DNA of 64,000 bases, from contig DASZZP010000083.1 in NCBI GenBank assembly GCA_035544875.1, positions 384,219 to 448,218 of the forward strand, read 5' to 3'. Under the pieces are notes generated by a model. That model was not told the DNA's origin. It searched no databases and saw only the letters and a list, made by a program, of their open reading frames with translations. The translations under genes and the position numbers were made by a program. Position 1 is the stretch's first letter; every line of letters starts with the position of its first letter. Positions 6,271 through 50,438 of the stretch are shown in pieces. This stretch comes from Thermoanaerobaculia bacterium (GTDB lineage Bacteria > Acidobacteriota > Thermoanaerobaculia > Multivoradales > UBA5704).

Positions 6271-8802
6271 TCAGGTCGCGAAGGCCATCGCCAGCAGCGT
6301 CGCCTGCTCCAGGGCGTGGGCCTTGGCCGAGCCGGTGGCGGGGCTGCCGGCGGCGTGCCGGCGGACCGAGCGCACCGGGTGGCCGGCCAGGCGCTCGAGC
6401 CGCGGATGGACATAGAACAGGGCACCCATGTTGGCCGGCTCCTCCTGCACCCAGACGAGATCGTGGCAGGCGGGATGGCGGGCCAGCTCGGCGGCGATTT
6501 CACTCTTCGGGAACGGGTAGAGCTGGTCGATGGCGATGATTGCCGTCGTCGTCGCGGTCGCTGTCGTGGCAGCGGTCGCCGTGGTCGCCGCGCCAGCCGG
6601 GCCGCGCCGCCGCGCCCGCTCCCGGCGCAGCTCGTGGGCGATCTTGCCGCTGCAGAACAGCAGCCGCTGCGCGTTTTCCACCGCGGGGTCCGGGATGACG
6701 TTCAGGAAACGCTCGCGGCTGAGCTCTGCGAGCGGCGACGACGAATCGCGGTGGCGCAGCATGCTCTTGGGCGTCATCACCACCAGTGGCTTGCGCCAGG
6801 GGCGCAGCGCCTGCCGCCGCAGGAGGTGGAAGTACTGCGCCGCGGTCGACGGCTGGCAGACCTGGATGTTGTCCTCGGCGGCGAGCTGCAGGAAGCGCTC
6901 GAGGCGCGCGCTGGAATGCTCCGGGCCCTGGCCTTCGTAGCCGTGCGGGAGGAGCAGGACCAGCCCCGAGAGCAGGTTCCACTTGCCCTCGCTGGCGGCG
7001 ATGAACTGGTCGATGATGATCTGCGCGCCGTTGGCGAAATCGCCGAACTGCGCCTCCCAGAGGACCAGGGCGTCAGGGTAATCGCGGCTGTAGCCGTACT
7101 CGAAACCGAGCACCGCCGCCTCCGAGAGCATCGAATCGTAGATCTCGAAGCGCGCCTGGCCGGCGGCCACGTGCGCGAGCGGCGTGTGCTCGCCGCCGGT
7201 CTCGACGTCGATCAGCACGGCGTGGCGCTGGGCGAAGGTGCCGCGCCGGGTGTCCTGCCCGCTCATCCGCACCGGCACCCCCTGGCGGACCAGCGAGGCG
7301 AAGGCCAGCGCCTCGGCCATGCCATAGTCGAGCGGCCGCTTGCCGTGCCCCATCTCGGCGCGCTCCGCGAGCAGGGCCTTGATCTTCTTGTGCACCGCGA
7401 AGCTCTGCGGCCAGCTGGTCAGCGGCGCGGTCAGCTCGCCGAGCGTCTCGGCAGGCAGGCCGGTCGCGACCTCGTACTCGGGTTTGAACGGACCCCCCTT
7501 ATAGGGGTCCCAGTACGCCGGCAGGGTGCGCAGCGACGCGCGCTTCTCGAGCCCCTTGGCCTCGCCCTGGGCGGCGTCGAGCTCGGCGCGCACCACCGCC
7601 TCGCGCCGCTCGGCCTCGTCGTCGGCCAGGCCGATCCGCTGGGCGTAGATCTTCCACAGCGGCGGATGCGCCTCGATCTTCTTGTAGAGCAGCGGCTGGG
7701 TGATGGTCGGATCGTCGACTTCGCTGTGGCCGTAGCGGCGGAAGCCGATCAGATCGACGACCACGTCGGAATGAAAGGCGTAGCGGTAATCGACCGCCAT
7801 CGCCGCCACCCGCGCCACCGCCTCCGGGTCCTCGGCGTTGACGTGAAAGATGGGGATCGGCAGGCGCTTGGCGATGTCGGAGGCGAAGCGCGAGGATTGC
7901 AGGCTCGCCGGCTCGGTGGTGAAGCCGATCATGTTGTTGACGATGACGTGCACGGTGCCGCCGACCCGGTAGCCGGGGAGCTCGGCCAGGTTGAGCGTCT
8001 CGGCCAGCACCCCCTGGCCGGCGAAGGCGGCGTCGCCGTGCAGCACGATCGGCATCACCAGGGTGCGGTCGCGGTCGCCGAGCCGCACCTGCTTGGCGCG
8101 CACGCGGCCGACCGCCACCGGGTCGACGGCTTCGAGATGGCTCGGGTTCGACACCAGGTGGAGGTCGATCTCGCGGCCGTTTCGCGCCCTGAAGGTGCCG
8201 GTCGCGCCCATGTGATACTTGACGTCGCCGCCCCCCAGCACGCTGCGCGGATCGACGTCCTCGAAGCCGGCGAAGATCTGCGCCGCCGGGCGCCCGACGA
8301 CGTTGACCATCACCGCGAGCCGGCCGCGGTGGCTCATCGCCAGCACCACCTGTCTGGCCTCGTGCGCCGCGGCGCTCTCGAGCATCTCGGTGAGCAGCGG
8401 GATGAGCGCAACGACGCCCTCGATCGAGAACCGCTTGCTCCCCAGGTAACGCGTCTGGACCAGGGTCTCGAAGGTCTCGGCGCGCAGGATCTCATCGAAG
8501 ATACGCTGCCGGTCCGGCTCTCCTGGCGCCGGCGCCTCCATGCGCTCGCCGAGCCAGCGCCGCCGCTCGGCGGCCGGGATGTGCATGAACTCGACGCCGA
8601 TCGTTCCGCAGTAGACCCGGCGGGCGAAGGCCGCGGTCTCCGCGTCGGCCAGCTCGGCGAGCGCCGGCTGCGGCTCGGCGGCGAGCCGGCGCAGCGGATC
8701 GAGGTCGGCCTGCAGGAAGCCCAACCGGCGAAAGGCGTTCAGCGTCTTCTGATCGAGCTTGCCGCGGGGCTCCGCGACGGCGGTGGCGATCTCGGTGGTC
8801 AT
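6271..8802 (-). CDS. sucA: 2-oxoglutarate dehydrogenase E1 component
   Basis: Start MTTEIATAV is the revcomp of cat at 8800-8802. ORF 6271..9327 shows strong OGDH E1 similarity throughout (ThDP-binding GDAAFAGQG, transketolase-like C-terminus). The upstream in-frame extension is non-coding because it runs into the intergenic repeat. Confidence 0.9.
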   Translation of the reverse strand: MTTEIATAVAEPRGKLDQKTLNAFRRLGFLQADLDPLRRLAAEPQPALAELADAETAAFARRVYCGTIGVEFMHIPAAERRRWLGERMEAPAPGEPDRQRIFDEILRAETFETLVQTRYLGSKRFSIEGVVALIPLLTEMLESAAAHEARQVVLAMSHRGRLAVMVNVVGRPAAQIFAGFEDVDPRSVLGGGDVKYHMGATGTFRARNGREIDLHLVSNPSHLEAVDPVAVGRVRAKQVRLGDRDRTLVMPIVLHGDAAFAGQGVLAETLNLAELPGYRVGGTVHVIVNNMIGFTTEPASLQSSRFASDIAKRLPIPIFHVNAEDPEAVARVAAMAVDYRYAFHSDVVVDLIGFRRYGHSEVDDPTITQPLLYKKIEAHPPLWKIYAQRIGLADDEAERREAVVRAELDAAQGEAKGLEKRASLRTLPAYWDPYKGGPFKPEYEVATGLPAETLGELTAPLTSWPQSFAVHKKIKALLAERAEMGHGKRPLDYGMAEALAFASLVRQGVPVRMSGQDTRRGTFAQRHAVLIDVETGGEHTPLAHVAAGQARFEIYDSMLSEAAVLGFEYGYSRDYPDALVLWEAQFGDFANGAQIIIDQFIAASEGKWNLLSGLVLLLPHGYEGQGPEHSSARLERFLQLAAEDNIQVCQPSTAAQYFHLLRRQALRPWRKPLVVMTPKSMLRHRDSSSPLAELSRERFLNVIPDPAVENAQRLLFCSGKIAHELRRERARRRGPAGAATTATAATTATATTTAIIAIDQLYPFPKSEIAAELARHPACHDLVWVQEEPANMGALFYVHPRLERLAGHPVRSVRRHAAGSPATGSAKAHALEQATLLAMAFAT

Positions 8803-9039
8803 GGCGCGATCAGGATACCGCTTTCCGCTCCCCGGCCGCGACAGCGAGCGGCGCCAGACGCGGCAGATCTCTTGGACCGTCGCTGCGTATAGCAGGGTGG
8901 CCGCCGGCCGCCGCTCAAAGGGATGGGAGCCGATCCTCGCGGGCGCCGGGGAACTGGCCGATAATGCGCTGACCTCGCTGACCTCGACGACTTCGATGAC
9001 CTCCATCGGGGCCGATACCGGGGTCGAGGCGATCGCACT

Positions 9040-9175
9040 AAGGCGAAACTCCCCGAAGCAAGAGGGAGGGGGCGTCCCCTTCCCCCCCGGAGGGGTGGGA
9101 AGGGGATTGAGGGGTTGCGGGGGGCGATCCGATCGATGCTTCGAGCAGGCCTCCACCGCCGCATCGCAGCGGCGT
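9040..9175 (+). repeat. GC-rich intergenic repeat element, copy 1 (MITE/REP-like, contains CCCCTTCCCCC...GGGGAAGGGG hairpin)
   Basis: Near-identical sequence recurs at 29670-29815 (inverted), 35391-35457 (truncated) and 47940-48100. Shared core: GGGAGGGGGCGTCCCCTTCCCCCCCGG...GGGTTGCGGGGGGCGATCCGATCGATGCTTCGAG..GCCTC.ACCGCC.CATCGCAGC. Confidence 0.85.
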
Positions 9176-9272
9176 CTTATCCTTCGGGATCGTAACCGCC
9201 GGTGGGGACTAGATCGATTCAGACAGGGGAGCTGGCCGCCCCGCTCGGCCGCGCCCCGGAGGAAGCTTCGCC

Positions 9273-11984
9273 ATGACCGTGACCTCCGCCAAGTCCGCGC
9301 CCGCGCTGGCGCTCCTCGCCGCCACACTCTTGCTGGCGGCGGTGCCCGCGATCCTCGGGGGGCGCTCCGTGCTGGCTCTGCCGACGCCGGTCAACCTGGG
9401 ACCGTCGCCGTTCGAGCCGGCCTCGACGGGAGGCGCCGCGACGCTCGACCGGGCGCTCGCCAAGCTCTCGACCCACAAGCGGCTGCTGGTGATCGGCGCC
9501 CATCCCGACGACGAGGACACGTCGCTGCTGGCCCTGGTGGCGCGCGGCATGGGGGGTGAGGCCGCCTACCTTTCGCTCTCCCGCGGCGAGGGCGGGCAGG
9601 ACCTGATCGGGCCCGAGCTCGGGGTCGGGCTGGGGTTGATCCGCAGCCGCGAGTTGCTGGCCGCCCGCGCCATCGACGGCGGGCGCCAGTTCTTCAGCCG
9701 CGCCTACGACTTCGGCTTCACCATGTCGCTCGAGGAGACGCTCGGGCAGTGGCCGAAGGAGGTGCTGGTCGAGGATACGATCCGCGTCATGCGGCGCTTC
9801 AAGCCGCAGGTCGTGGTCTCGATCTTTCCGGGCGTGCCGGTCAAGACCCACGGCCAGCACCAGGCCTCCGGCATCGCGGCGTTCGCGGCCTTCCCGCTGG
9901 CCGGCGACGCCAGCGCCCTGCCGCAGCTGCGCGCCGAGGGGCTGGCGCCCTGGGCGCCGCAGGCGCTCTTCCGCAAGACCTGGTTCGACCCCCAGGCGAC
10001 GACGCTCAAGCTGCCGCTCGGCGGCATCGATCCGTGGAGCGGCAAGTCGGCCTTCCAGCTCGCCATGGCCAGCCGCGGCATGCACCGCTCGCAGGGCATG
10101 GGCTTGACGCAGGAGCTGGGGGCCAAGGACTCCGCGCTCGGCTGGGTCTCGGGCGGCGCCGGGGCGGCGGCGAAGGACCTCTTCGACGGCATCGACACCC
10201 ATCTGCGGGCGATCGCCCGGCCGCTCGCCGACCCGGTGCTGCGGTCGCGAGTAGCGGCGGAGCTCGAGGCCGTCGAGGGGCTCGCCGTGCGCGCCCGGGC
10301 GACGCTCAACCCGGAGCGGCCGGAGGCGCTGGTGCCCGACCTGGTGGAGGCCGTACGGCACCTGCGCGCCGCGGCGGCGCTGCTCGCGCCAGCGGGCGGG
10401 CGCCCCGACCAGAAGCCGGTGGCCGAGCTGATCGCCGAGAAGCTGGAGGTGGCCGAGATCGCCCTGGCCAGCGCCGCCGGCGTCGCGCTCGACGCCACGA
10501 CGCCGCGCGAGGCGCTGGTCGCCGGCGAGTCGTTCCCGGTCGCCGCGACCCTCTGGAACAGCGGCAGCCGGACGCTCGCCGCGGTCGCGGTCACCCTGGC
10601 CCCCGCGCCGGAGTGGCACGGCGAGCCGGTCGCCGGGGAGGCCAAGGAGCTGGCGCAGGGAGGGCTGCAGAAATGGGAGCTCAAGGCGGTGGTGCCGGCG
10701 GCGGCGCCGCCGACCATGCCCTATTTCCTGCGCCTGCCGCTCTCCGGCGGCCTCTACGACTGGAGTGCGGCGGCCGCCGGAGAGCGCGGCGAGCCGTTCG
10801 GGCCGCCGCCGCTGATCGCGCGCTTCAACTTCAGCCTCGACGGCGTCCCGGTCACCCTCGAGCGCGAGGTGGTGCATCTTCACCGCAACGAGGTGCTGGG
10901 GGAGGTCCGCCGGCCGCTGCGGGTGGTGCCGCTGGTCGAGGTGGCGGTCGCCGAGAGCGTGCAGATCTGGCCGCTCAGCCGGCATGAGCCGCGCGGCGTG
11001 CGAGTGGTGGTGACCTCGCACGCCAAGGCCGCTCTGCGCGGCCGCCTGGAAGTCGCCTCGGCGCCGGCCGCCGGCGGCGCGGCATGGCCCGCGGTGCCGC
11101 CCCGGTCGTTCGAGATCCCGGCTCCCGACCCCGCCGCCGACGAGGCGGAGGGCGAGCAGCTGGCGCTGCCCCTGACCCTGCAGCCGCCGGCTGCGCTGGC
11201 CCCGGGCCGCTACCCGCTGCGCCTGGCCGCGGTGCTCGAGGACGGCGCCCGTTTCGACCTCGCGGTGCCGGTCATCGACTATGCCCACATCCACCCGACC
11301 CCCAACCCGCGCCACGCGGCCGTCGAGGTCACCGCCACCGACCTCAAGCTGCCGCCGCTCGAGCGGGTCGGCTATGTGCGCGGCGTTTCCGACGAGGTGC
11401 CGGAGTTCTTGCGCCAGGCGGGAGTGCCGCTCGAGCTGCTCGGCCCGGGCGAGCTGGCGGGCGCCGATCTCACCCGCTACGACGCCATCGTGATCGGCAG
11501 CCGCGCCTACGAGAGCGAGCCGGCGCTGGCGCGCTTCAACCATCGCCTGCTCGACTACGTGCGGGGCGGCGGGCTGATGATCGTCCAGTACCAGCAGTAT
11601 GCCTTCATCGAGAGCGGCTTCGCGCCGTTCAAGCTCGAGATCGCCCGCCCGCACGACCGGGTGACCGATGAGACCGCCGCGGTCACCCTGCTCGACCTCG
11701 CCGACCCGGTGTTCAGCACGCCGAACAGGATCGCCGAAGCCGACTGGCAGGGTTGGGTGCAGGAGCGCGGCCTCTACTTCGCCCACAGCTGGGACCCGGC
11801 CTACAAGCCGCTCCTCGCCATGGCCGATCCCGGCGGGCCGCAGCAGCGCGGCGCGCTCCTGGCGGCGGCCTACGGCAAGGGCAAGTACGTCTACACCGGC
11901 CTCGCCCTCTTCCGCCAGCTCCCCGCCGGCGTGCCCGGCGCCTACCGCCTGTTCGCCAACCTGCTCGCGCTCGGGAGGAAGTAG
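9273..11984 (+). CDS. secreted PIG-L/LmbE-family N-acetylglucosaminyl deacetylase with large C-terminal extension (903 aa)
   Basis: GGAGGA SD precedes ATG 9273. Signal peptide present. PIG-L motif LLVIGAHPDDEDTSL plus downstream HGQHQASG. C-terminal ~200 aa (DAIVIGSRAYESEPAL...GGGLMIVQYQ) resemble a ThuA/class-I-glutamine-amidotransferase-like fold. Confidence 0.8.
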   Translation: MTVTSAKSAPALALLAATLLLAAVPAILGGRSVLALPTPVNLGPSPFEPASTGGAATLDRALAKLSTHKRLLVIGAHPDDEDTSLLALVARGMGGEAAYLSLSRGEGGQDLIGPELGVGLGLIRSRELLAARAIDGGRQFFSRAYDFGFTMSLEETLGQWPKEVLVEDTIRVMRRFKPQVVVSIFPGVPVKTHGQHQASGIAAFAAFPLAGDASALPQLRAEGLAPWAPQALFRKTWFDPQATTLKLPLGGIDPWSGKSAFQLAMASRGMHRSQGMGLTQELGAKDSALGWVSGGAGAAAKDLFDGIDTHLRAIARPLADPVLRSRVAAELEAVEGLAVRARATLNPERPEALVPDLVEAVRHLRAAAALLAPAGGRPDQKPVAELIAEKLEVAEIALASAAGVALDATTPREALVAGESFPVAATLWNSGSRTLAAVAVTLAPAPEWHGEPVAGEAKELAQGGLQKWELKAVVPAAAPPTMPYFLRLPLSGGLYDWSAAAAGERGEPFGPPPLIARFNFSLDGVPVTLEREVVHLHRNEVLGEVRRPLRVVPLVEVAVAESVQIWPLSRHEPRGVRVVVTSHAKAALRGRLEVASAPAAGGAAWPAVPPRSFEIPAPDPAADEAEGEQLALPLTLQPPAALAPGRYPLRLAAVLEDGARFDLAVPVIDYAHIHPTPNPRHAAVEVTATDLKLPPLERVGYVRGVSDEVPEFLRQAGVPLELLGPGELAGADLTRYDAIVIGSRAYESEPALARFNHRLLDYVRGGGLMIVQYQQYAFIESGFAPFKLEIARPHDRVTDETAAVTLLDLADPVFSTPNRIAEADWQGWVQERGLYFAHSWDPAYKPLLAMADPGGPQQRGALLAAAYGKGKYVYTGLALFRQLPAGVPGAYRLFANLLALGRK

Positions 11985-12828: not shown

Positions 12829-13932
12829 ATGATCAGATTCCGTGAACAGACGGCGGCTCCGGCGTTCCCCCGGGGCGCTGTGGCGCTGATCGCAATGGGC
12901 GCCGTCCGCGCGCTCGGCGCGACGATTGCCTTGCTGGCGCTCGCGGCGTGCGGCGGCGGGGGGGGCGGGCGGACACCGCTCACGGTCTACTCGCCGCATG
13001 GCAAGGATTTGCTGACGCTGATGCAGCGCAGCTTCGAGGCCAAGAACCCGCGGGTCGAGGTGCGCTGGCTGGACATGGGGTCGCAGGACGTCTACGACCG
13101 CATCCGCTCGGAAGCCGCCAACCCGCAGGCCGACGTCTGGTACGGCGGGCCGCGCGAGATCTTCGCGCGCGGCGCGGCCGACGGGCTGCTCGCTCCCTAC
13201 CGGCCGGCCTGGGCCGAGGCGGTGCCGCCCGCCAGCCGCGACGCGCGCAATCTCTTCTTCGGCGCCTACCGGACCGCGCCGGTGCTGGTCTTCAACTCGG
13301 CCGCGGTGGCCGCGGCGGCGGCGCCGGGCGATTGGGACGACCTGCTCGATCCGCGCTGGAAGGGCAAGATCCTGATTCGCGATCCGCTCGCTTCAGGCAC
13401 CATGCGCACTCTGTTCGGGATGATCCTGGCGCGCTCGGTGGCGGAGACCGGCAGCACCGAGCGCGGTTTCGCATGGCTGCGCCGGCTCGACGCCCAGACC
13501 AAGGAGTACCTGCAGAACCCGGCGCTGCTGATGGAGAAGCTCGATCGGCGCGAGGGGCTGGTGACGGTGTGGGAGCTGACCGACATGCTCTGGCAGAAGC
13601 AGCGCGGCGCGCCTCTCGACTACCGCTTCCCGCGCAGCGGCACGCCGGTGATTGACGACTCGATCGGTCTGGTCAAGGGGTGCAAGCACCCGGAGGAGGC
13701 GCGGCGGTTCATCGACTTCGCCGGCAGCGTCGAGGGACAGGAGCTGGCGGCGCGCGAGGCGTATCGCCTGCCGGCGCGGACCGACCTGCCGCCCGAGCGC
13801 CTGCCGGAGTGGGCGCGGCAGGTGCTCCGCGCGCTCGTGCCGGCCAAGGTCGACTGGGGCCTGATCGAACGACACGGCCAGGAGTGGATGAGCAGCTGGG
13901 ACAGATCGGTGCGCGGCCGCGGCGCGGCATGA
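12829..13932 (+). CDS. ABC transporter periplasmic substrate-binding lipoprotein, Fe(III)/thiamine (FbpA/AfuA/TbpA) family
   Basis: Signal plus lipobox LALAACGGG. Family similarity (LTVYSPHGKDL..., WYGGP..., DYRFPRSGTPVIDDSIGLVKG). First gene of an SBP-ATPase-permease operon. Confidence 0.8.
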   Translation: MIRFREQTAAPAFPRGAVALIAMGAVRALGATIALLALAACGGGGGGRTPLTVYSPHGKDLLTLMQRSFEAKNPRVEVRWLDMGSQDVYDRIRSEAANPQADVWYGGPREIFARGAADGLLAPYRPAWAEAVPPASRDARNLFFGAYRTAPVLVFNSAAVAAAAAPGDWDDLLDPRWKGKILIRDPLASGTMRTLFGMILARSVAETGSTERGFAWLRRLDAQTKEYLQNPALLMEKLDRREGLVTVWELTDMLWQKQRGAPLDYRFPRSGTPVIDDSIGLVKGCKHPEEARRFIDFAGSVEGQELAAREAYRLPARTDLPPERLPEWARQVLRALVPAKVDWGLIERHGQEWMSSWDRSVRGRGAA

Positions 13933-13990
13933 GCGGAGTCTGGCCGCCGCTCGCGCGCACTCCCCGCCGGCCGTCCCGAACCGCGCCGCA

Positions 13991-15268
13991 ATGACCCCCT
14001 TTCTGGTCCTCGAGCGACTCGAGAAGAGCTTCGGCGCGACCCGCGTGCTGCACGGTCTGTCGCTCGACCTTGGCGAGGGCGAGGTGCTGGCCCTCCTCGG
14101 TCCCAGCGGCAGCGGCAAGACGACGGCCCTGCGCCTGATCGCCGGCTTCGAGACACCCGATCCGGGAGGCGGCCGCATTCTGGTCGGCGGCGAGGACGTC
14201 ACCGGGCTGCCGCCGGCGAAGCGCCGCTTCGGCATGGTGTTCCAGCACTACGCGCTGTTTCCACATCTCTCGGTGGGCGGCAATATTTCATTCGGCCTGG
14301 AAGGCCGTAGGTCGTTCGGCCTGGAAGGCCGGGGAGCCGGCGGCGCCGGCGCCGGGCGACGGCTCGACGGTCCCGAGATCGCGGCCCGGGTTGCCGCGGC
14401 GCTCGCGCTGGTCGACCTGGCCGGGTTCGAGCGCCGGCGGGTCGGCGAGATCTCCGGCGGCCAGCAGCAGCGTGTTGCCCTGGCGCGGGCGCTGGCTCCG
14501 GAGCCGCGCGTCCTGCTGCTCGACGAGCCGCTGTCGAACCTCGATCCGGCACTGCGCGAGCGCACCCGCCGCGAGCTGCGACGGGCCATCGAGCGGGTCG
14601 GCATCACGACCCTGCTGGTCACCCACGAGCAGGAAGAGGCGTTCCAGCTCGGCGACCGGGTGGCGGTGCTGGAGGGCGGGGTCCTGCACCAGGTAGGCAA
14701 CCCGCAGGAGCTCTACGAGCGCCCGGCGACGCGCTTCGTCGCGACCTTCGTCGGGCGCGCCAGCGGTCTCCCCGGCACCTTCGAGACTGACACGCCCAAC
14801 CCCGGGTCGGGACCCGGCGAGGGGCGTGTGCGCCTGGCCTCGGCCGGCGGCTCCGCGGTCTGGGCCGGGATCCCGGCCGAGCCGATGGCGGCAGGCGAGT
14901 CAGCCGAGCTCGTCATCCGGCCCGAAGCGCTGGCCTTCGTGCCGCCGGGCACGGCCGGCGCGCTGGCCGGCCGCGTGCTCGAGCGGCGCTATGCCGGGCC
15001 GGTCACCTACTACCAGGTCGAGGTCGACCTCGCGGGAGCGCGGGCAGAGGCGACTGGCACGGCGGGAGTCGTCGAGGTGCTGGCCGGACCGCGGGCCGCC
15101 TCCCCGGGCGAACAGGTGGCCGTCGCCCCGGCGAACGGTCCCGCCGCGCGCATCTTCCGCCGCGGTGCGGCGGCCGCGCCCCCATCGGCCCCGTCGAGCC
15201 TGTCGCCCCCGTCGCGCCCGTCGCGCCCCTCTCAGTCATCGCCGCCTGCCGAGGAGCCCGGTAGTTGA
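13991..15268 (+). CDS. ABC transporter ATP-binding protein (FbpC/PotA-like) with C-terminal TOBE-like region
   Basis: Walker A GPSGSGKTT, signature LSGGQQQRVALARAL, Walker B LLLDEPLSNLD, H-loop. Carries an internal in-frame tandem duplication at 14290-14335. Confidence 0.85.
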   Translation: MTPFLVLERLEKSFGATRVLHGLSLDLGEGEVLALLGPSGSGKTTALRLIAGFETPDPGGGRILVGGEDVTGLPPAKRRFGMVFQHYALFPHLSVGGNISFGLEGRRSFGLEGRGAGGAGAGRRLDGPEIAARVAAALALVDLAGFERRRVGEISGGQQQRVALARALAPEPRVLLLDEPLSNLDPALRERTRRELRRAIERVGITTLLVTHEQEEAFQLGDRVAVLEGGVLHQVGNPQELYERPATRFVATFVGRASGLPGTFETDTPNPGSGPGEGRVRLASAGGSAVWAGIPAEPMAAGESAELVIRPEALAFVPPGTAGALAGRVLERRYAGPVTYYQVEVDLAGARAEATGTAGVVEVLAGPRAASPGEQVAVAPANGPAARIFRRGAAAAPPSAPSSLSPPSRPSRPSQSSPPAEEPGS

Positions 15269-23331: not shown

Positions 23332-23413
<82 letters not shown>

Positions 23414-29486: not shown

Positions 29487-29660
29487 ACTCTTGCTCCTTG
29501 CAACAGGTTGTTTTTGTTCGCCGCGATCAGCGCGGCAACATGCCCTCCCCTCCTTTGAAAGCGAGGGCAAATCGCGCAATTCGGTGATTCCGGAGTCAGC
29601 ACTCGCAGCACAATCCGGCCTCCGGTTGAATCAGTCTTAAGTCCCACCGGCGGTTCCGAG
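29487..29660 (-). promoter_or_regulatory. long 5' leader of the csp gene (likely cold-responsive 5'UTR)
   Basis: About 170 nt of lower-GC, structured sequence between the csp start and the intergenic repeat. CspA-family mRNAs characteristically carry long regulatory leaders. Confidence 0.4.
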
Positions 29661-29669
29661 CCCGAGGGA

Positions 29670-29815
29670 TGAAACTGCGCTGCAATGTGGCGGCCGAGGC
29701 CTACTCGAAGCATCGATCGGATCGCCCCCCGCAACCCCTCGATCCCCTTCCCACCCCTCCGGGGGGGAAGGGGACGCCCCCACCCTCTTGCTCCGGAGAG
29801 TTTCGTCTTCGATCC
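29670..29815 (-). repeat. GC-rich intergenic repeat element, copy 2 (inverted orientation)
   Basis: Revcomp is about 90% identical to 9040-9175 (same cgaaactc..gcaagagggNgggggcgtccccttcccccccggaggggtgggaaggggat.gaggggttgcggggggcgatccgatcgatgcttcgag... structure). Confidence 0.85.
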
Positions 29816-30100
29816 CACTGCGCCCGCGCTTTCCCGGTATTCCTGAAGCAATAGCTTAGTTGAAGGACCTGATTACGGACACTCTGTTGGCGGGACTTCC
29901 GTTTCCTGGCGCGGCTTTCTAGTCGGTCAAATCGGCAAGCTGCTGGGAGGCAATGAAGCGGGGAATGATTCGTGGCAGCCGCTGCTAACCCAAGTTCCAG
30001 CCATAACGCGCAGAAGGTGCCACATACTATGGCACGTCGAGGGGAGGAATGCAAGACCCCCCGACGGCCAGCGATCGCCCCGCAGGAGGTGCCTGTGTCG

Positions 30101-30859
30101 ATGCGTCTCCCTCGCCCGCTCGATCCGGTGGAAATCCGGGTCCTCGGCTCGCTGCTCGAAAAGGAGCAGACGACGCCGGAGTCCTATCCGCTGACGCTCA
30201 ATGCGCTGCTCTCGGCCTGCAACCAGAGGACCAACCGCGAGCCGGTGCTGCAGCTCGGCGAGGCAGAGGTGAGCGCCGCCCTCGAGCGCCTGCGCCAAGA
30301 CGTTCTAGTCTGGCGCACCGAGAGCGCGCGCAGCCTGCGCTGGAAGCAAAGCGTCGAGCGCCGCTGGGAGCTCGATCCCGCCGCCAAGGCAATTCTCGCC
30401 CTGCTCCTGCTGCGCGGGCCGCAGACTACCGGGGAGTTGCGCGCCCGCAGCGAGCGCCTGCATCCTTTCGCCAGCCTGCAGGAGGTCGAACAGACGCTGC
30501 GCCGTCTGGCCGCGACCGAGGAGCCGCTGGTGCGTGAGATGCCCCGCCGGCCGGGCCAGAAAGAGAGCCGCTGGACCCACCTGGTCGGCCCGCCGCGCGC
30601 TGGCGGCGAGCCGGTCCTGCCGGGACACGATGACGCCGCTGAGGGCGCGACGGACCCTCGCGCCGCTGCCCTCGCCGCGGTCGGTGCCCCCATCGGCCCC
30701 GGTGCGGTCGCTTCCGCTCCGGCGGCCGCGATGGCGACCCCCGGCGCCTCCGGCGCCTCTGGTTTTTCCGGCGCGCTCGCCACCCTCGCCACCCGCGTGG
30801 GGCGCCTCGAAACCCTGGTCGAGCGGCTCGCCGCCGAGATCGCGGAGCTGAAGGGCTAG
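30101..30859 (+). CDS. YceH/DUF480 (UPF0502) family protein
   Basis: AGGAGG at 30084-30089, then GTG 30095 / ATG 30101. LDPVEIRVLGSLLEKEQTTPESYPLTLNALLSACNQRTNREPV matches the DUF480 winged-helix repeats. Ala/Gly-rich C-terminus. Confidence 0.75.
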   Translation: MRLPRPLDPVEIRVLGSLLEKEQTTPESYPLTLNALLSACNQRTNREPVLQLGEAEVSAALERLRQDVLVWRTESARSLRWKQSVERRWELDPAAKAILALLLLRGPQTTGELRARSERLHPFASLQEVEQTLRRLAATEEPLVREMPRRPGQKESRWTHLVGPPRAGGEPVLPGHDDAAEGATDPRAAALAAVGAPIGPGAVASAPAAAMATPGASGASGFSGALATLATRVGRLETLVERLAAEIAELKG

Positions 30860-33669: not shown

Positions 33670-35388
33670 ATGGCGCCGATTCAGTTGCCTGAACGATCTG
33701 GGGAGCGCCCGAGCGATCGCATGATCGGCAAGATCCGCCCGAGCTGCCGCCGCGGCAGCCGCCGCAGCAGCTCCATCAGCCGCGGCAGCCGTCCCTGCTG
33801 GCCGGCGGCCGGCGCCGCGGCGCTCGCCCTGCTGCTGCTCGGCTCAATGCTCTCCGGCATGGCCGAGGCCCGCCGGCCGGGCGGCGGCCAAACCTACTCC
33901 GGGAGTCATTCCAGCCACTCCACTCATTCCGCCAGCCTGTCGCGCCCCGGCGGCGGCCACACCTTCTCCGGCAGCTCCTCGCGCCCCGGCGGCGGCCATA
34001 CCTATTCCGGCGGCTCCTCGCGCGGCGGCTCGAGCCGTGGCGGCGCGCCGGTGGTGGGCTTGCCGGGCGCCGGCCTCGCGGGCTGCGGCGGTGCCGGCTG
34101 CTTCATGCTCCTTGTGCTGCTCGTCGTCGTCATCCTCATCTTCATCTATTTCAAGCGCGGTGGGTTCGGCGGAGCGGGCGGCGCGTCGCCGCCGGCTACC
34201 CCCGACCTGCCGCCGTCGCGCGACCTCGACTCGATCCGCGATCTCGACCCGGAGTTCTCGGTGGTCCTGTTCGAAGACTTCGCCTATGCCCTTTACGCCA
34301 AGGCGCACGAGGCGCGCACCAACCGAGGCGAGCTCGAGGCGCTCGCTCCCTACCTGAGCGAGGAGGCGCGGGCCGAGCTGGCGCAGCGGCAACCGGCCGG
34401 TGCACCGGTGTCGGGCGTGGTGATCGGCGCGATGCGGGTGGCGAGCCTCCTCCTGCCGGGCGGCGCCGAGGCGCGGCCGCAGGTCGTGACGGTCCTGGAG
34501 CTCGAATCCAACATGACCCTGGGCGCCGGCACCGGCGACTTGACGCAGTACGTCCGCGAGCGCTGGCGGTTGGTGCGCGATGCCGCGGTGCGCAGCAAGC
34601 CGCCGGAGGCGGTGCGCAGCTTCCACTGCCCCAACTGCGGCGCGCCGCTTGGCCCCGCCGGCGGCGAGCGCTGCGAATATTGCGGCGAGGTGGTCTCGGG
34701 GGGCCGCTTCGACTGGAGCGTGGTCGCGATCGAGCTGCTCGAGGTCGAGTCGCGGCCGCCGGCCCTGACCGGCACCACCGCCGAGCAGAGCGGCTCCGCG
34801 CCGACGATCAGCCACCCGGCGGTCGCCGAGCGGCGCGCCGAGCTGCTGGCCGCCGATCCCGAGAGCAGCGACGAGGCGGTGGCCAAGCGCCTGCAGCTGA
34901 TCTATTCCGAGCTCAATCCCGCCTGGACCGCCCTCGACCTGACGCCGGTCCGCGGCTACGTCTCCGACGGCCTGTTCGACTACCTCCAGTACTGGATTGC
35001 CGCCTACCGCAGCCAGGGGCTGCGCAACGAGCTGCGCAACATGCGCCTGACGCGCATCCAGCTGACCAAGGTCATCCGCGACAAGCATTTCGATTCGCTG
35101 ACCTTCCGCATCTGGGCAACCGGGCGCGACACCACGGTGCGGCAGGCGAGCGGCGAGGTGGTGGGGGGCAATCCGAATGCCGACCGCGACTACTCCGAGT
35201 ACTGGACGCTGATCCGCGGCGCCGCGGTCCGCGGCGCTCCGCGAGCGGACAAGAGCTGCCCCAACTGCGGCGCCCAGCTCGACGTCAACATGGTCGGACG
35301 CTGCACCCACTGCGACGCCAGGATCACGAGCGGCGATTTCGATTGGGTGCTGAGCAAGATCGAGCAGGACGAGTCCTACACCGGCTAG
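33670..35388 (+). CDS. membrane-anchored hypothetical protein with Gly/Ser/His repeats and two tandem zinc-ribbon + GxFDW modules (572 aa)
   Basis: N-terminal RPGGGxTxSG x3 repeats and a TM helix (CFMLLVLLVVVILIFIYF). Two ~190-aa repeats each end CPNCGA...C.YCG/CTHCDA then G.FDW..IE (FDWSVVAIELLEVE; FDWVLSKIEQDE). Possible Tim44-like/NTF2-like fold. Start may be 33721. Confidence 0.55.
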   Translation: MAPIQLPERSGERPSDRMIGKIRPSCRRGSRRSSSISRGSRPCWPAAGAAALALLLLGSMLSGMAEARRPGGGQTYSGSHSSHSTHSASLSRPGGGHTFSGSSSRPGGGHTYSGGSSRGGSSRGGAPVVGLPGAGLAGCGGAGCFMLLVLLVVVILIFIYFKRGGFGGAGGASPPATPDLPPSRDLDSIRDLDPEFSVVLFEDFAYALYAKAHEARTNRGELEALAPYLSEEARAELAQRQPAGAPVSGVVIGAMRVASLLLPGGAEARPQVVTVLELESNMTLGAGTGDLTQYVRERWRLVRDAAVRSKPPEAVRSFHCPNCGAPLGPAGGERCEYCGEVVSGGRFDWSVVAIELLEVESRPPALTGTTAEQSGSAPTISHPAVAERRAELLAADPESSDEAVAKRLQLIYSELNPAWTALDLTPVRGYVSDGLFDYLQYWIAAYRSQGLRNELRNMRLTRIQLTKVIRDKHFDSLTFRIWATGRDTTVRQASGEVVGGNPNADRDYSEYWTLIRGAAVRGAPRADKSCPNCGAQLDVNMVGRCTHCDARITSGDFDWVLSKIEQDESYTG

Positions 35389-35390
35389 AA

Positions 35391-35457
35391 AGAAATTGGT
35401 CCGTGCGTCAGGGGAGGGGGCGTCCCCTTCCCCCCCGGAGGGGTGGGAAGGGGATCA
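35391..35457 (+). repeat. GC-rich intergenic repeat element, copy 3 (5' half only)
   Basis: gaaattggtccgtgcgtcaggggagggggcgtccccttcccccccggaggggtgggaaggggat matches the 5' half of copy 4 (47940-48005) almost exactly. Confidence 0.8.
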
Positions 35458-39013: not shown

Positions 39014-39384
39014 GGCCCCCTCCGCCCCGGCCTGCTCTCTCCAAGTAAGACAGACCTAACGCCCCTTGGCGGGGGGAGCGTTGGAGGTCACGACCTGGGT
39101 CCGCGCGCTGGCCGGGGTTGGTGAGAAAGACGCTCTGGGGGGAGGGAGTGATGGCGCGCGGACCCAGGTCGCGAGGTGACCTCCGACGCCCCGGACCGGC
39201 AGCGGGGGGAATTGCCCTGCAGCCCTCGCACACCCCCTCGCCACCTCGACGAAGCTGGTGCAGTGAGCGAGGACCCTGCGGAGGGCGCGGCCGTTGGCAC
39301 CTTGGGTTCGTTCCACTCTCCTCAGGACAGTGCCAGGACGGAGGGGGCTCACCTCCGGGGCTCACCTCCGGTAATATCGCTAGC

Positions 39385-41073
39385 GTGCTGCCCGAGCTGA
39401 CCAGCGCCGAGCCGGAGGCCCAGGTGAAGTGGGCCAAGGTCATCGACAACACGCGCTGCATTGGCTGCCACGCCTGCACCACCGCCTGCAAATCGGAGAA
39501 CCAGGTGCCGCTCTCGGTGACGCGCACCTACGTCAAGTACGTGGAGGTGGGCGTCTTCCCTCAGGCCCGGCGGGTATTCCAGGTTACCCGCTGCAATCAA
39601 TGCGACTCCGCTCCCTGCACGGTCGCCTGTCCCACCAGCGCGATGTACCGGCGGCCCGACGGCATCGTCGACTTCGACAAGTCGATCTGCATCGGCTGCA
39701 AGGCCTGCATCGCAGCCTGCCCCTACGACGCCATCTTCATCAATCCCGAAGACCATTCGGCCGAGAAGTGCAACTTCTGCGCGCACCGCCTGGACGTCGG
39801 GCTCGAGCCGGCTTGCGTCGTGGTCTGCCCCACCGAGGCGATCCTGGTCGGCGACCTCAACGATCCGGCCTCGCGGGTGGCGCAGATCGTCCACCGTGAG
39901 CCGGTCGCCGTGCGCCGCCCCGAGAAGGCGACGCTGCCGAAGCTCTTCTACCGCGGCGCCCATCAGGCAACGCTCGATCCGCTGGCGGCCAGGCGGCCGG
40001 CCGGCGGTCTTTTCTCGTGGAGTCAGCAGCAGCCGTTGGGTGGAGGTGAGGTGGTCTCCGGTTACCCGGATCTCGCCGGGCGGAGCAACTCCTCCGCCGC
40101 GGCCCTCCTCGCCTATGACATTCCCCACCGGGCTCCCTGGGACTGGCGCGTGAGCCTCTACACCCTGACCAAGGGAATCGCCGCCGGCGTCTATCTGGTG
40201 GCCCTGCTGCTCATGGCGCTCGGCCGGCTGAGCGCCACGAGCCCGCTCTGGCTGTTCCAGGTGCCGGTCCTGGCCGGCCTCTTCCTGGCCGCAACCGGCG
40301 CCCTCCTGATCTGGGACCTGGAGCACCCCGCCCGCTTCTACCTCATCTTCACCCGGCCGCAGTGGCGCAGCTGGCTGGTGCGCGGAGCATTTCTCATCGG
40401 CGGCTATGCGGTCACGCTCGCCCTCCACCTGCTCTGTGCCGTTGCCGGCCGGCCGCAGCTCACCCGGCTGCTTATCTGGCTCGGCCTGCCTCTGGCGCTG
40501 CTCACGGCGGTCTACACTGCTTATCTCTTCGCCCAGGCGAAGGCCCGCGACCTCTGGCAGAACCCGTTGCTGCCGCCGCATCTCGCGGTCCAGGCCGTGC
40601 TGGCCGGGGCTGCGGCCCTCGTGCCGGCGGTCATCCTGAGCATGCCGGCCGCGCCGCGCCTGCTGCCGTCTCTGCTCGCCATCCTGGCCGCCGTCTGCCT
40701 GCTCCACCTCGGGCTGGTTCTCGGCGAGCTGACGATGACCCACGCCACGGCGCACGCGCACCTGGCCAGCCAGGAGATGCTCCGCGGCCGCTTCCGCGCC
40801 TGGTTCTGGGCAAGCATCGCGCTGGTTGGCGCGGCCGCGGCAATGTCCTGGCTCGGCGCCGCGGGTGCCACCGCGCATCTAACGGGCAGCGTTGCAGGCA
40901 CTGCCGCGGATCTGATGGGCGGTGCTGCCGCAGCCGCGGATCTAGTGGGCGGCGCGGCCTCGGCCGCGCCTTACTTCTTGATCGGCGCCGGAGCCGCCCT
41001 CTTCGCCCTCCTGGGTTTGCTAGCCTTCGAGCACGCCTACGTGCAGGCGGGCCAGGCAGTGCCGCTGGCCTAG
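39385..41073 (+). CDS. fused 4Fe-4S ferredoxin subunit + NrfD/PsrC-type membrane anchor of a molybdoenzyme complex (TtrB-TtrC-like fusion)
   Basis: Four CxxCxxCxxxCP clusters (CIGCHACTTAC, CNQCDSAPCTVACP, CIGCKACIAACP, CNFCAHR...CVVVCP), then 8+ TM helices of NrfD type. GTG 39385 chosen because upstream in-frame sequence is non-protein-like. Start is uncertain. Confidence 0.7.
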   Translation: MLPELTSAEPEAQVKWAKVIDNTRCIGCHACTTACKSENQVPLSVTRTYVKYVEVGVFPQARRVFQVTRCNQCDSAPCTVACPTSAMYRRPDGIVDFDKSICIGCKACIAACPYDAIFINPEDHSAEKCNFCAHRLDVGLEPACVVVCPTEAILVGDLNDPASRVAQIVHREPVAVRRPEKATLPKLFYRGAHQATLDPLAARRPAGGLFSWSQQQPLGGGEVVSGYPDLAGRSNSSAAALLAYDIPHRAPWDWRVSLYTLTKGIAAGVYLVALLLMALGRLSATSPLWLFQVPVLAGLFLAATGALLIWDLEHPARFYLIFTRPQWRSWLVRGAFLIGGYAVTLALHLLCAVAGRPQLTRLLIWLGLPLALLTAVYTAYLFAQAKARDLWQNPLLPPHLAVQAVLAGAAALVPAVILSMPAAPRLLPSLLAILAAVCLLHLGLVLGELTMTHATAHAHLASQEMLRGRFRAWFWASIALVGAAAAMSWLGAAGATAHLTGSVAGTAADLMGGAAAAADLVGGAASAAPYFLIGAGAALFALLGLLAFEHAYVQAGQAVPLA

Positions 41074-41167
41074 TCTGAGTCTGGTTGCCCGGAGGGGATC
41101 GTGCCATGCGAACGGGATGCGAGCTGAACGGACCGCAGACAGCGCTCTAAGGGAGAGGGAAGCGGGC

Positions 41168-44164: not shown

Positions 44165-44191
44165 GCCCGAGCCCGGCGTGGCCGCCTGACC

Positions 44192-45124
44192 GTGGAGCTC
44201 TTCCGGGCCCTGGGCGCCCTCTGCGAGTCGCCGCGCCCCGAGCTGCAGGGGATCGCCGACCTCCTCGAGCTCGGAGCGCTCCCCACGCGCGCCGCCCACG
44301 GCGACCTCTTCCTCTTCCAGCTCTACCCCTACGCCTCGGTCTATCTGGGCGCCGAGGGAATGATGGGAGGAGAGGCGGGCGACCGGATCGCGGGCTTCTG
44401 GCGCGCTCTCGGGCAGACGCCGCCGCCGGAGCCCGACCATCTGGCGCTGATGCTCGGCCTGCAGGCGCGACTCAGCGAGCTCGAGGCGGCGGCGGAGGCC
44501 GCTGACGGACCGGAGCGGGAACGACCTGCCGGCAGCGCCGGCTATGGCGACGGCAACCTGGCGGCAGCGCCGGCCGCCGGCCGCTGGCGCCACGCCCGCG
44601 CGGCCTTTCTGTGGGAGCACCTGCTCTGCTGGCTGCCGCTCTTCCTCGGCAAGCTCGCCGGCCTCGCGGCGGTCGCCGCGCCGTTCTACCTGCGCTGGGG
44701 CGCCCTCCTGCGCGACGCCTTGCGCGAGGAGGCGGCCGCCCTGCGCCTGCCGGCCCGGCTGCCGCTGCACCTGCGCGCCGCGCCCGGCATCGCGAGCCCC
44801 CGGGATGAAGAGGGGGGGCCGCAAGCCTTCCTACGATCGCTGCTCAGCCCGGTGCGCAGCGGCATGATCCTCACCCGCGCCGACCTCGCCCGCGCCGCTC
44901 GCGACCTCGATCTGGCGCCGCGGGCCGGCGAGCGCCGCCTGGCCCTCGAGACCATGCTCGATCAGGACGCCGCGGCAGCCCTGGCCTGGCTCGGCGCCGA
45001 GGCCGCCGCCTGGGCGGGCCGCCACCAGCCGGAGCTCCACTTCGCCCCGCAGCTCGCCGACTTCTGGCGCGCCCGCGCCGAGGCCACCGCCCGGCTGCTC
45101 GGTGACCTGTGGGCGGACCTCTAG
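44192..45124 (+). CDS. TorD/DmsD/NarJ-family redox-enzyme maturation chaperone
   Basis: Immediately follows the catalytic subunit. Contains the TorD signature region FLFQLYPYASVYLGAEGMMGGE (cf. PYESVY). Ala/Leu-rich helical protein. Confidence 0.6.
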   Translation: MELFRALGALCESPRPELQGIADLLELGALPTRAAHGDLFLFQLYPYASVYLGAEGMMGGEAGDRIAGFWRALGQTPPPEPDHLALMLGLQARLSELEAAAEAADGPERERPAGSAGYGDGNLAAAPAAGRWRHARAAFLWEHLLCWLPLFLGKLAGLAAVAAPFYLRWGALLRDALREEAAALRLPARLPLHLRAAPGIASPRDEEGGPQAFLRSLLSPVRSGMILTRADLARAARDLDLAPRAGERRLALETMLDQDAAAALAWLGAEAAAWAGRHQPELHFAPQLADFWRARAEATARLLGDLWADL

Positions 45125-47858: not shown

Positions 47859-47939
47859 GAGGCCTCCACCGAGCAGAAGGCCGCCGGGCAGGTGCACGCC
47901 GGCGCGACCGCTCGAGCCCGGCAATCCTACTCGAAGGAA

Positions 47940-48100
47940 ATTGGTCCGCGCGCCAGGGGAGGGGGCGTCCCCTTCCCCCCCGGCGCCGCCGGGCAGGGAC
48001 CCGGCGGCTTCCGACAACCGGGAAGGGGACTCGCGGGGGTTGCGGGGGGCGATCCGATCGATGCTTCGAGTAGGCCTCGACCGCCACATCGCAGCAGCGT
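47940..48100 (+). repeat. GC-rich intergenic repeat element, copy 4
   Basis: gaaattggtccgcgcgccaggggagggggcgtccccttccccccc...gggttgcggggggcgatccgatcgatgcttcgagtaggcctcgaccgccacatcgcagcagcg. Same ends as copies 1 and 2 with a divergent middle. Confidence 0.85.
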
Positions 48101-48161
48101 TACATGCCGCGGGATCGGCACCGCCGGTGGGCGCTCGAACCTGTTCAGGGCAAAGCGGCTG

Positions 48162-49049: not shown

Positions 49050-49281
49050 GCGTCCCTCCGGTCAGGAGTTCACGACGAGCACCCGCTGCGTGCTGCCCGA
49101 CGGGTCAGTCTTCAGAGCCGAGACAAGACGGCGATACATACAAGACCGCGCTCCATCCTGTCAATCTGCCGCTCGACTTGCGCCGCGTTCTCCTTCCCGT
49201 TCCGCCTGCGGTCATGTAACGTTGTGGCGAGGGGGGGCCGCTGGCGGCGCGCGGCGCCCGGTCGTGTCGCGGGAGGTGTGC

Positions 49282-50331: not shown

Positions 50332-50438
50332 CCGCCGCGACCGGCGCAGGTCTGCGGAGCGCGCGCCCGCCGTGATCGCCGCCCGCCGGGTCAGGTCGTG
50401 CGGCAACGGCCGTAACATTTGCCGGGGAGCGCCGTTCC

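Follow-up and report, generated by a model that had tools for sequence, protein, structure and literature searches.

Introduction

Among the described classes of small bacterial repeats, the repetitive extragenic palindromic (REP) sequences and bacterial interspersed mosaic elements (BIMEs) of Proteobacteria are the closest to the family reported here, an intergenic, hairpin-containing repeat found in a 64,000-nt stretch of a Thermoanaerobaculia genome (Acidobacteriota; assembly GCA_035544875.1, contig DASZZP010000083.1, positions 384,219 to 448,218; hereafter, the window). Several other kinds of element bear on its interpretation by virtue of their ends or targets. The Correia/NEMIS, ERIC and RUP MITEs (miniature inverted-repeat transposable elements) have terminal inverted repeats (TIRs) and a TA or short target duplication, and are derived from identifiable insertion sequence (IS) families; IS5 or IS481-like elements target CTAG or YTAR; the paired left-end and right-end (LE/RE) hairpins of IS608 are bound by one TnpA; Helitron 3' ends read CTRR; and mycobacterial interspersed repetitive units (MIRUs) are 40-100-bp tandem units with short open reading frames (ORFs) coupling stop and start codons. 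With respect to REPs themselves, the survey of Di Nocera et al. (2013; PMC3733652) places them mainly between convergent and unidirectional ORFs and within 20 bp of ORF 3' ends, states that GTAG REP termini often supply the TAG stop of the flanking ORF, and gives the transposase of CGTC REPs as not known. A REPIN is an inverted REP doublet forming one long hairpin, accompanied by a REP-flanked gene for a REP-associated tyrosine transposase (RAYT) (Bertels and Rainey, 2011, PMC3116915; PMC3337134; PMC5581495).

In the literature searched, no description of repeats in Thermoanaerobaculia was found. The repeat analyzed here is a new family, new in architecture, of an already known kind of small bacterial repeat, and its unusual traits are an ultraconserved central core, the absence of terminal inverted repeats, an oriented placement at stop codons and nesting with two other mini-repeats.

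Results

Copies in the window and across genomes

An earlier note on the window, made from its letters alone, had described four related elements of 130-160 bp. Their presence is confirmed by exact matching: the 23-nt hairpin arm GGGGGCGTCCCCTTCCCCCCCGG has four exact matches in this 70% G+C window (9068 and 35416 and 47961 on the plus strand, 29759 on the minus strand) vs. 0.02 expected from shuffles, and the 35-nt tail GGGGTTGCGGGGGGCGATCCGATCGATGCTTCGAG has three (9111 and 48036, plus; 29704, minus) vs. none from shuffles. A profile built from full copies returns exactly the same four places and none further, even at E<=10 with all filters off. By a repeat finder, copies 1 and 2 (numbered by position) align over 167 nt at 90%, and copy 4 has an additional 96-103 nt of tail in common. 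The size given in the note was understated, the true unit being ~175 nt.

We have scanned a species-representative genome collection with the 23-mer GGGGGCGTCCCCTTCCCCCCCGG; all collection-based counts given here and below are counts among the matches listed. The exact 23-mer is present at no fewer than 73 genome loci (at least 73), with ~60 of those listed originating from a single Thermoanaerobaculia metagenome-assembled genome (MAG), SMAG_U6236, and the others from SMAG_U6588, U11420, U14523, U9774, SHSU.bins.256 and one Acidobacteriota MAG. A second, non-overlapping core 23-mer yielded 10 further contigs (L074-L083) from JGI metagenomes. A 171-position nhmmer profile derived from 26 full copies detected at least 99 copies or fragments in at least 73 loci plus the window, and at least 110 when the metagenome loci are included (at least 83 loci). 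The carriers comprise at least seven Thermoanaerobaculia/Acidobacteriota MAGs and soil metagenomes, and no match was obtained in viral contigs or in a plasmid collection; as far as sampled, the family appears confined to a clade of Thermoanaerobaculia (Acidobacteriota). The possibility named in the earlier note that the four copies of the window are the only ones is therefore set aside, about 110 being among the matches listed. As a side observation, seven of the 10 metagenome matches lie within ~230 nt of a contig end, from which it seems that short-read assemblies of these organisms break at the repeat.

Architecture of the unit

The unit is ~170-175 nt long, or ~205 nt when a nested insert is present. 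It begins with a 5' head, composed of CTAG or CTAA, RACGAAAY and ~13 variable bases of several types, which is followed by a G/C-rich core of ~75 nt (GGGG-n-GGGGGCGTCCCCTTCCCCCCCGG-AGGGGWGGGAAGGGGATCGAGGGGTTGCGGGGGGCGATCCGATAGA) and by a tail of ~60 nt, represented by at least two subfamilies, between the core and a short 3' hairpin. The stems of this 3' hairpin vary among copies (GCCGCC/GGCGGC, GCCACC/GGTGGC, TCGGC/GCCGG, CACCG/CGGTG), and six to eight bases after it the unit ends in CTAG or CTAA. Position by position, the core is identical at 90% or more, both within SMAG_U6236 and across other species, vs. 40-70% for head and tail and only 70-90% for the coding DNA that flanks copies in the same genomes; divergence into subfamilies is a matter of head and tail, the ~75-nt hairpin core staying near-invariant.

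No TIRs were found in full copies. Apart from the central and the 3' hairpin, these have only weak internal pairs as inverted repeats; the two ends of the unit have the palindromic CTAG in common and no further inverted match. There is likewise no sign of coding capacity, as reading frames are not conserved among copies and the copies fall outside genes supported by G+C content at third codon positions (GC3). We rejected the possibility that a head-plus-tail repeat came first and the core was inserted into it later, given that head and tail are hardly ever seen without a core. Mini-derivatives in which the core is deleted and the head is fused directly to the 3' end were observed at L072 4897-4945 and L005 5130-5234, the latter followed by a second head that is also core-less.

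Filled and empty sites

Comparison of related species revealed six cases in which an orthologous site is filled in one genome and empty in another, two of them reciprocal. Two SMAG_U6236 loci, L044 and L068, are syntenic with the window: the copy at L044 841-999 lies between orthologues of window 12829-13932 and 13991-15268, which in the window are separated by a 58-nt spacer (13933-13990), and the copy at L068 4760-4945 lies downstream of the orthologue of 48607-50331, after which the window (50332-50438) has no copy. L012 and L017 (SMAG_U6588 and U11420; ~90% nucleotide identity over 3.5 kb) show opposite differences at two neighboring intergenic sites, the empty alleles measuring 33 or 62 nt where the other genome has a copy. 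L008 is filled and L016 is empty, its site reading TAG-AGGGCAA-ATG. Finally, the metagenome contig L077, which is 79-85% identical to window 39430-44423, has a decayed copy vs. unrelated sequence at window 39014-39423. At the position orthologous to this decayed copy, the window has a long imperfect inverted repeat (39075-39192; 21-nt arms, 95% complementary, flanked by 17-nt arms, 88%), located within a 410-nt intergenic region upstream of a gene starting near 39424. L029 and L049 both have a copy at their orthologous site.

Further structural variants include head-to-tail tandems with a single common CTAR (CTAG or CTAA) in L070, L066, L048 and L026, derivatives truncated at either end or internally deleted, and copies interrupted by two other small repeats, each of which also occurs free-standing. 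Between copies, homology ends at the unit boundaries and the flanks are unrelated. The site differences between related species imply that the element is, or was, mobile, and the sequence comparisons as a whole indicate that it is mobile and non-autonomous; on the same grounds, it is a high-copy interspersed REP-like element and not a segmental duplication. The suggestion of an active MITE/REP-like element made in the earlier note is therefore upheld in its REP-like, mobile part (~110 listed copies; filled and empty sites) and not as a MITE in the strict sense (no TIRs, no simple target-site duplication, no parent transposon seen in the sampled loci). Exact look-ups of two flanking proteins for strain-level empty sites returned no record.

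Placement relative to genes and target sites

In about 19-20 of the 58 head-complete copies, the TAG, TAA or TGA of the head serves as stop codon to an upstream gene that is co-oriented and supported by GC3. A TGA head is seen only if the TGA is a gene's stop, and among the 38 heads that do not end a gene, 26 read TAG or TAA, the remainder being decayed. The 3' CTAG, which reads TAG on the other strand, is the stop of a convergent gene in no copy; the stops of convergent genes are located 4-19 nt past the 3' end of the unit. The resulting stop use of the 5' vs. the 3' end, ~19-20:0, has a binomial probability of ~2e-6 under random orientation (our own arithmetic).

The upstream gene is co-oriented with the element in 46 copies and opposed in 21. 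By strand of the upstream and downstream gene relative to the element, 19 contexts are (+,+), 15 are (+,-), six are (-,-) and six are (-,+), so that in tandem gene contexts the sense orientation prevails by 19 vs. 6. One third of the copies, including three of the four in the window, are antisense or in divergent promoter regions, and the functions of the genes flanking copies are unrelated.

Among the bases following the 3' CTAR, those of the head motif are enriched (R 92%, A 55%, C 44%, G 58%, A 48%, compared with a background of 15% for A); judging from these frequencies, the 3' flank weakly resembles the head. Empty sites resemble the head motif too (TGAGGCGG, TGAGAAGGG). We also discarded the idea that stop codons of this genome generally have the head motif around them; beyond the elements, the window has no occurrence of it. 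The search for target-site duplications proposed in the earlier note did not demonstrate a simple duplication: the two terminal CTAG/CTAA repeats of one copy showed no significant excess of similarity over repeats taken from different copies (own 2.78 vs. cross 2.65 of 4, p=0.17; flanks, p=0.72).

Folding and terminator analysis

The core hairpin has 13-14 bp with one bulged base and a predicted energy of -29.8 kcal/mol as RNA. In an alternative pairing, which is the minimum-energy fold of copy 4, the C-run pairs with an upstream G-run. The downstream G-runs of the core contain a G-quadruplex motif, and four of the 15 such motifs of the window fall in elements. The hairpin is nearly invariant, with one informative change (T-A to C-G in L081) that keeps the pair. 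In an RNAalifold analysis of 29 full copies, this invariant central hairpin alone was predicted, with zero covarying pairs; covariation, suggested as a check in the earlier note, is absent apart from that one pair in one copy. Compared with shuffles, the whole unit does not fold significantly better on the plus strand (z -1.35) and does so modestly on the minus strand (z -2.18). As for pairing between head and tail, the comparison of own vs. permuted partners gave p values of 0.43 for the distal and 0.90 for the proximal tail. A CGAAGCR/YGCTTCG complementarity that seemed compensatory between window and SMAG_U6588 copies proved not to be general.

The 3' hairpin is real but weak: its mean energy of -11.1 kcal/mol is lower than that of shuffles (-8.6) and that of the opposite strand (-9.6) (n=44; p ~1e-4 and ~1e-5, respectively). 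This strand difference arises from G-U type substitutions, which identifies the plus strand, as drawn here, as the folding strand. In the four window copies, no T-run follows the hairpin (the next bases are ATCGAGGGG; on the other strand, CGCCCCC), and since no hairpin is followed by a T-run, the element is not a canonical (Rho-independent) terminator. Nor was there an Rfam match for the elements at gathering or permissive thresholds, the best scores being 12-21 bits vs. thresholds of 40-100. The structured small-RNA or terminator module offered as an alternative in the earlier note thus finds no support in the Rfam search, in the whole-unit fold (z -1.35) or in the downstream bases. A passive, REP-like role as a 3' untranslated region (UTR) hairpin is possible.

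The individual copies of the window

Copy 1 is a full unit of 175 nt (9038-9212, plus strand; model positions 2-170, 130.6 bits) with a CTAA head, the G/C core, a B-type tail and a terminal CTAG. It is located between the start of a sucA-like E1 gene on the minus strand and a PIG-L family gene (ATG at 9273). Its head (9038-9066) reads CTAA-GGCGAAAC followed by the variable segment, the CTAA being at the position that in other copies is used as the stop codon of the upstream gene. The near-invariant, G/C-rich core (9064-9137, plus strand; GGGAGGGGGCGTCCCCTTCCCCCCCGGAGGGGTGGGAAGGGGATTGAGGGGTTGCGGGGGGCGATCCGATCGA) is identical at 90% or more (at least 90%) in ~90 copies from all species, and the central hairpin within it (9075-9106) is formed by 14-nt arms at 9075-9088 and 9093-9106, 93% complementary with one bulged base. 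The variable tail (9138-9212) includes the weak 3' hairpin region and the terminal CTAG at 9209-9212.

Copy 2, also a full unit (29637-29811, minus strand; 137.3 bits), has the head CGAA-GACGAAAC and the 3' end TTAA, and lies between a PMT_2 gene and a DUF480 gene (29972-30859, plus strand) with its head towards the start of the latter. Copy 3 (35385-35457, plus strand) is the 5' part only, ~40% of a unit, with head and central hairpin (model positions 2-73); it is placed between a Tim44-like gene (33670-35388) and a methyltransferase gene, and its TAG at 35386-35388 is the Tim44-like stop codon. Copy 4 (47930-48137, plus strand), another full unit, measures 208 nt and has CTCG at its 5' as well as its 3' end. 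On one side of it is the start of a minus-strand prolyl oligopeptidase gene, and on the other is the stop, at 48162, of a minus-strand SLT transglycosylase gene.

GC3-based gene calling combined with Pfam bears out the intergenic location of all four, the first bases of copy 3 being the Tim44-like stop. The two 5'-end variants distinguished in the earlier note are real, as is the inflation of ORF calls, exemplified by the minus-strand ORFs 6271-9327 and 45672-48089 that cross copies 1 and 4; its GGAG stem-loop, in contrast, is not shared by copy 4, where a 36-nt hairpin (47984-48019) takes the place of the loop.

A few additional observations concern the surroundings of the copies. Copy 4 is located at a synteny breakpoint (window 47930-48232 with respect to L068 2131-2248); in SMAG_U6236, the SLT gene adjoins the inverted orthologue of window 39389-41648, and this junction has no repeat. 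Within the Tim44-like gene, two tandem 39-nt units (33928-34005; 82% identical) encode a repeated Ser/Arg/Pro/Gly-rich stretch. The sole Rfam or ARAGORN match in the window is a tRNA-Met (CAT) at 23337-23413 on the minus strand.

Two further mini-repeats

The 36-nt insert of copy 4 (47984-48019, plus strand; CGCCGCCGGGCAGGGACCCGGCGGCTTCCGACAACC) represents a second, independent REP-like hairpin repeat, nested so that it replaces the loop of the central hairpin. Its core, CGCCGGGCAGGGACCCGGCG, is nested 25 times and free-standing 13 times in the loci. It also forms tandem arrays with a period of 33-36 nt, and sites were recorded at L032 3857-3909, L062 949-1037, L066 6309-6361 and L005 387, 5837 and 6436.

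A third mini-repeat, 38-45 nt in length, lies within the main element at a number of different points, interrupting it, and has further occurrences elsewhere, some of them tandem. It was observed within copies at L011 441-478, L026 5026-5063 and L033 3962-3999, and outside copies at L007 4236, L010 409, L027 4961, L032 5360, L045 6503, L063 963 and L067 2284. Its SMAG_U6236 form is GCCGCCGCTCCCGCCATTGGCGGCACTCCCGGCAGGTC and its SMAG_U6588 form, present in L050, L060, L061, L012 and L019, is GCCGCGGCTCCGCCTGTCGCCAGTCGCGGCACTCGTTGCTCGTCG. Always placed between G and G/C, it has the appearance of an independent mobile insertion of very small size.

Discussion

Combining the copy distribution, the filled and empty sites and the placement at stop codons, we consider it likely that the family is a non-autonomous REP/BIME-like repeat without TIRs, inserting in one orientation at stop-codon-like, purine-rich sites by means of a putative enzyme. 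The repeat would spread via a trans-acting enzyme that recognizes the invariant hairpin core in cis, with an oriented insertion at a short asymmetric purine-rich target resembling the element's own end junction (Y-T-R-R | R-A-C-G-A); the target would share or provide the 5' stop triplet, and the element itself would bring along the 3' CTAR. Integration may be conservative and site-specific or single-stranded (HUH-type), as opposed to DDE cut-and-paste: an asymmetric, junction-like target combined with the absence of inverted repeats argues against a DDE enzyme and favors a site-specific recombinase or an HUH-type enzyme. The tail-to-head junction in any circular form would read …GGCAA-CTAG-AACGAAAC…. 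With a genome at 70% G+C, the main places for A-rich purine strings are those where a Shine-Dalgarno-like stretch comes after a stop codon, which would explain both the location and the strand of the copies. Such an insertion would keep the upstream stop intact, as well as a purine-rich stretch before the downstream gene. When inserted in sense, the stable hairpin would become part of the 3' UTR of the upstream gene, where it would probably act as a REP-like barrier to exonuclease or read-through, an effect that we would regard as a side effect and not as the cause of the element's existence. The core would be held constant in the master copies of every subfamily as the cis-acting site of the enzyme, while head and tail drift.

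Several of our own observations weigh against this interpretation. An all-against-all blastp comparison of 1328 ORFs from the ~580 kb of loci revealed no multi-copy ORF, a regular-expression search (a crude test) found no HUH...Y ORF in the sampled loci, and no case was seen of a head and a tail parted by a coding insert, the heads without a core being deletion derivatives only. The filled and empty pairs are all between species (75-92% identity), a distance that puts the exact junctions, and hence a short duplication, beyond resolution. Both copies with a 3' CTCG have a 5' TCGA, as a short duplication would give (chance ~0.01 by our own estimate). Orientation shows no association with local GC skew (54 vs. 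44, p=0.36; a weak test), so that a lagging-strand single-stranded DNA mechanism is not favored. The context counts are approximate, the genes having been called by a home-made GC3 filter, and the core may owe its extreme conservation to a function in the host and not to a need of mobility. The full-length parent transposon envisaged in the earlier note was looked for and not found in the ~580 kb of sampled loci; one ORF located between inverted copies in L067 was considered as a mobilizing gene and set aside as MarR-like by sequence.

Two alternative routes of mobility have to be weighed against these data. A classical MITE, i.e., a deletion derivative of a DDE transposon moved by cut-and-paste with a 4-bp CTAG/CTAA target-site duplication, would account for the CTAG or CTAA at both ends of most full copies, for the tandems with one common CTAR and for the two copies with the same unusual variant (TCGA/CTCG) at both ends, and it fits the size and intergenic location of these non-coding, multi-copy units of 170-208 nt. 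Yet the ends lack TIRs beyond the palindromic CTAG, the conserved part is the centre and not the ends, the terminal repeats are no more alike within a copy (p=0.17), and no transposase was found in the ~580 kb of loci. Moreover, insertion into a palindromic CTAG in either orientation should result in equal stop use, which is at odds with the ~19-20:0 in favor of the 5' end. Overall, we hold the MITE explanation to be improbable. Mobilization of the REP/REPIN or IS200/IS605 type, as in palindrome-associated transposable elements (PATEs), would involve a single-copy Y1 HUH transposase (RAYT/TnpA) acting on single-stranded DNA and inserting 3' of a TAG-type tetranucleotide without duplication. 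This is consistent with the lack of TIRs, with hairpins as the conserved or covarying features, with an insertion edge directly 3' of the stop triplet (the element's own 3' CTAG would regenerate the target, explaining the tandems), with the G-U tolerance of the 3' hairpin on one strand and with the other nested REP-like hairpin families of these genomes; proximity to ORF 3' ends and TAG-supplying termini have been reported for GTAG REPs (PMC3733652). However, the 170-nt unit is neither a 20-40-nt palindrome nor an inverted REP doublet, and its two hairpins are unrelated in sequence, with the 3' one freely variable, unlike paired LE/RE hairpins. The CGTC of the core is located within the stem and is not an unpaired tag, a head-like 3' flank is not predicted by a rule on the 5' target alone, no orientation bias relative to GC skew is seen, and the crude test revealed no HUH-Y ORF in the sampled loci. 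Overall, we hold this route to be unlikely, while giving it some weight.

The repeat could instead be primarily a host cis element (a 3'-UTR hairpin, a terminator lacking a U-tract, a G-quadruplex switch or a protein-binding site) that is maintained by selection, its multiplicity being secondary. Near-invariance of the core across species vs. 70-90% identity in neighboring coding DNA speaks for such a function, together with the 2:1 sense excess behind genes and the many copies flush with stop codons, the stable hairpin (-29.8 kcal/mol), the G-quadruplex motif and alternative C-run pairing in the core, and the copy present in both L029 and L049. On the other hand, a third of the copies (three of four in the window) are antisense or in divergent promoter regions, empty orthologous sites are frequent, truncation at one end or the other affects many copies, the genes next to copies have unrelated functions, and there is no T-run, Rfam match or covariation; the chances of a host element as the primary explanation appear slim. 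Segmental duplication or gene conversion of a few intergenic regions, suggested at best by the mere four copies of the window itself, is already refuted by the collection scans (~110 copies among the matches listed, in several species) and by homology that ends at the unit limits between unrelated flanks, and it retains practically no credibility. A more speculative variant, which we offer tentatively and do not expect to hold, combines mobility with function: the family would be TIR-less mobile DNA for which an unrecognized or recruited recombinase reads the G/C hairpin and picks junction-like targets, in sense, at stop/Shine-Dalgarno junctions, leaving both intact, with the G-rich core, including its alternative hairpins and G-quadruplex motif, co-opted as a 3'-UTR switch.

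The repeat has practical implications for annotation: in these 70% G+C MAGs it makes spurious ORFs longer, obscures where genes start and stop and causes breaks in assemblies; a family model would improve gene calling and binning. It also provides a clean case of a small TIR-less repeat with a conserved centre and oriented insertion flush with stop codons. Should its enzyme be found, the family would add a case to those REP-like elements that lack a known transposase, which as a set are poorly understood; PMC3733652 mentions the same gap with respect to CGTC REPs. In addition, strain typing within an uncultured soil lineage could draw on the copies and the two nested mini-repeats as markers.

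In structure, the element falls outside the definitions of REPs, REPINs, MITEs, IS200/IS605 derivatives, attC sites and intrinsic terminators, although its ecology is that of REPs. Integron attC sites, with RYYYAAC...GTTRRRY ends, a variable centre and cassette arrays, differ from the present units in their ends (here, CTAR-RACGAAAC and ...CTAR), in the conserved centre and in the flanks, which here are ordinary chromosomal genes. With MIRUs the family has in common small intergenic repeats in a high-G+C genome, sense placement within operons and ends overlapping the upstream stop, the window element being, unlike MIRUs, dispersed, single-unit and hairpin-centred. It resembles Correia/NEMIS, ERIC and RUP in its range of 100-200 nt, in being non-coding and intergenic with hundreds of copies in full and truncated forms, and in that co-transcription with neighboring genes can occur, and differs from them by the lack of TIRs and by the central position of the conserved part. 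The palindrome-associated elements of the IS200/IS605 group and Helitron/IS91 ends, taken as a lead only, also have no TIRs and no clear duplication, with a small hairpin a few bases before a fixed 3' tetranucleotide (here, CTAG/CTAA) and one-orientation insertion beside a short specific sequence; unlike in IS200/IS605 PATEs, the end hairpins are unmatched with a variable 3' one, no replication-strand bias was seen (GC skew, a weak test), and no HUH gene was found in the sampled loci (a crude test).

The relationship to REPIN-RAYT systems is that of a non-autonomous miniature mobile DNA persisting in a lineage, for which one trans-acting enzyme may be presumed and in which the hairpin is conserved far beyond what neutral decay allows, although there is no doublet and no RAYT was found in the sampled loci. 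With respect to REP/BIME, the differences are that the window element is 170-205 nt long with a defined head and tail, in place of a 20-40-nt palindrome, and that CTAR direct repeats at both ends, and not head-to-head dimers, are its characteristic arrangement. Its CGTC is paired within the stem of the consensus structure and forms no unpaired tag, unlike that of CGTC REPs, and its 13-bp bulged stem without A/T first pairs, 4-5-nt loops and CCA tail set it apart from the CGTC-1 to 4 families. Compared with the REPs of PMC3733652, the family is like GTAG REPs in that its ends can supply the TAG stop of the flanking ORF, like CGTC REPs in having no dedicated transposase known, and like REP/BIME in being found mostly downstream of ORFs and very near their 3' ends. 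Above all, it shares with REP/BIME the character of high-copy, non-coding, intergenic DNA with a G+C-rich hairpin at its centre, mosaic or nested with other small repeats.

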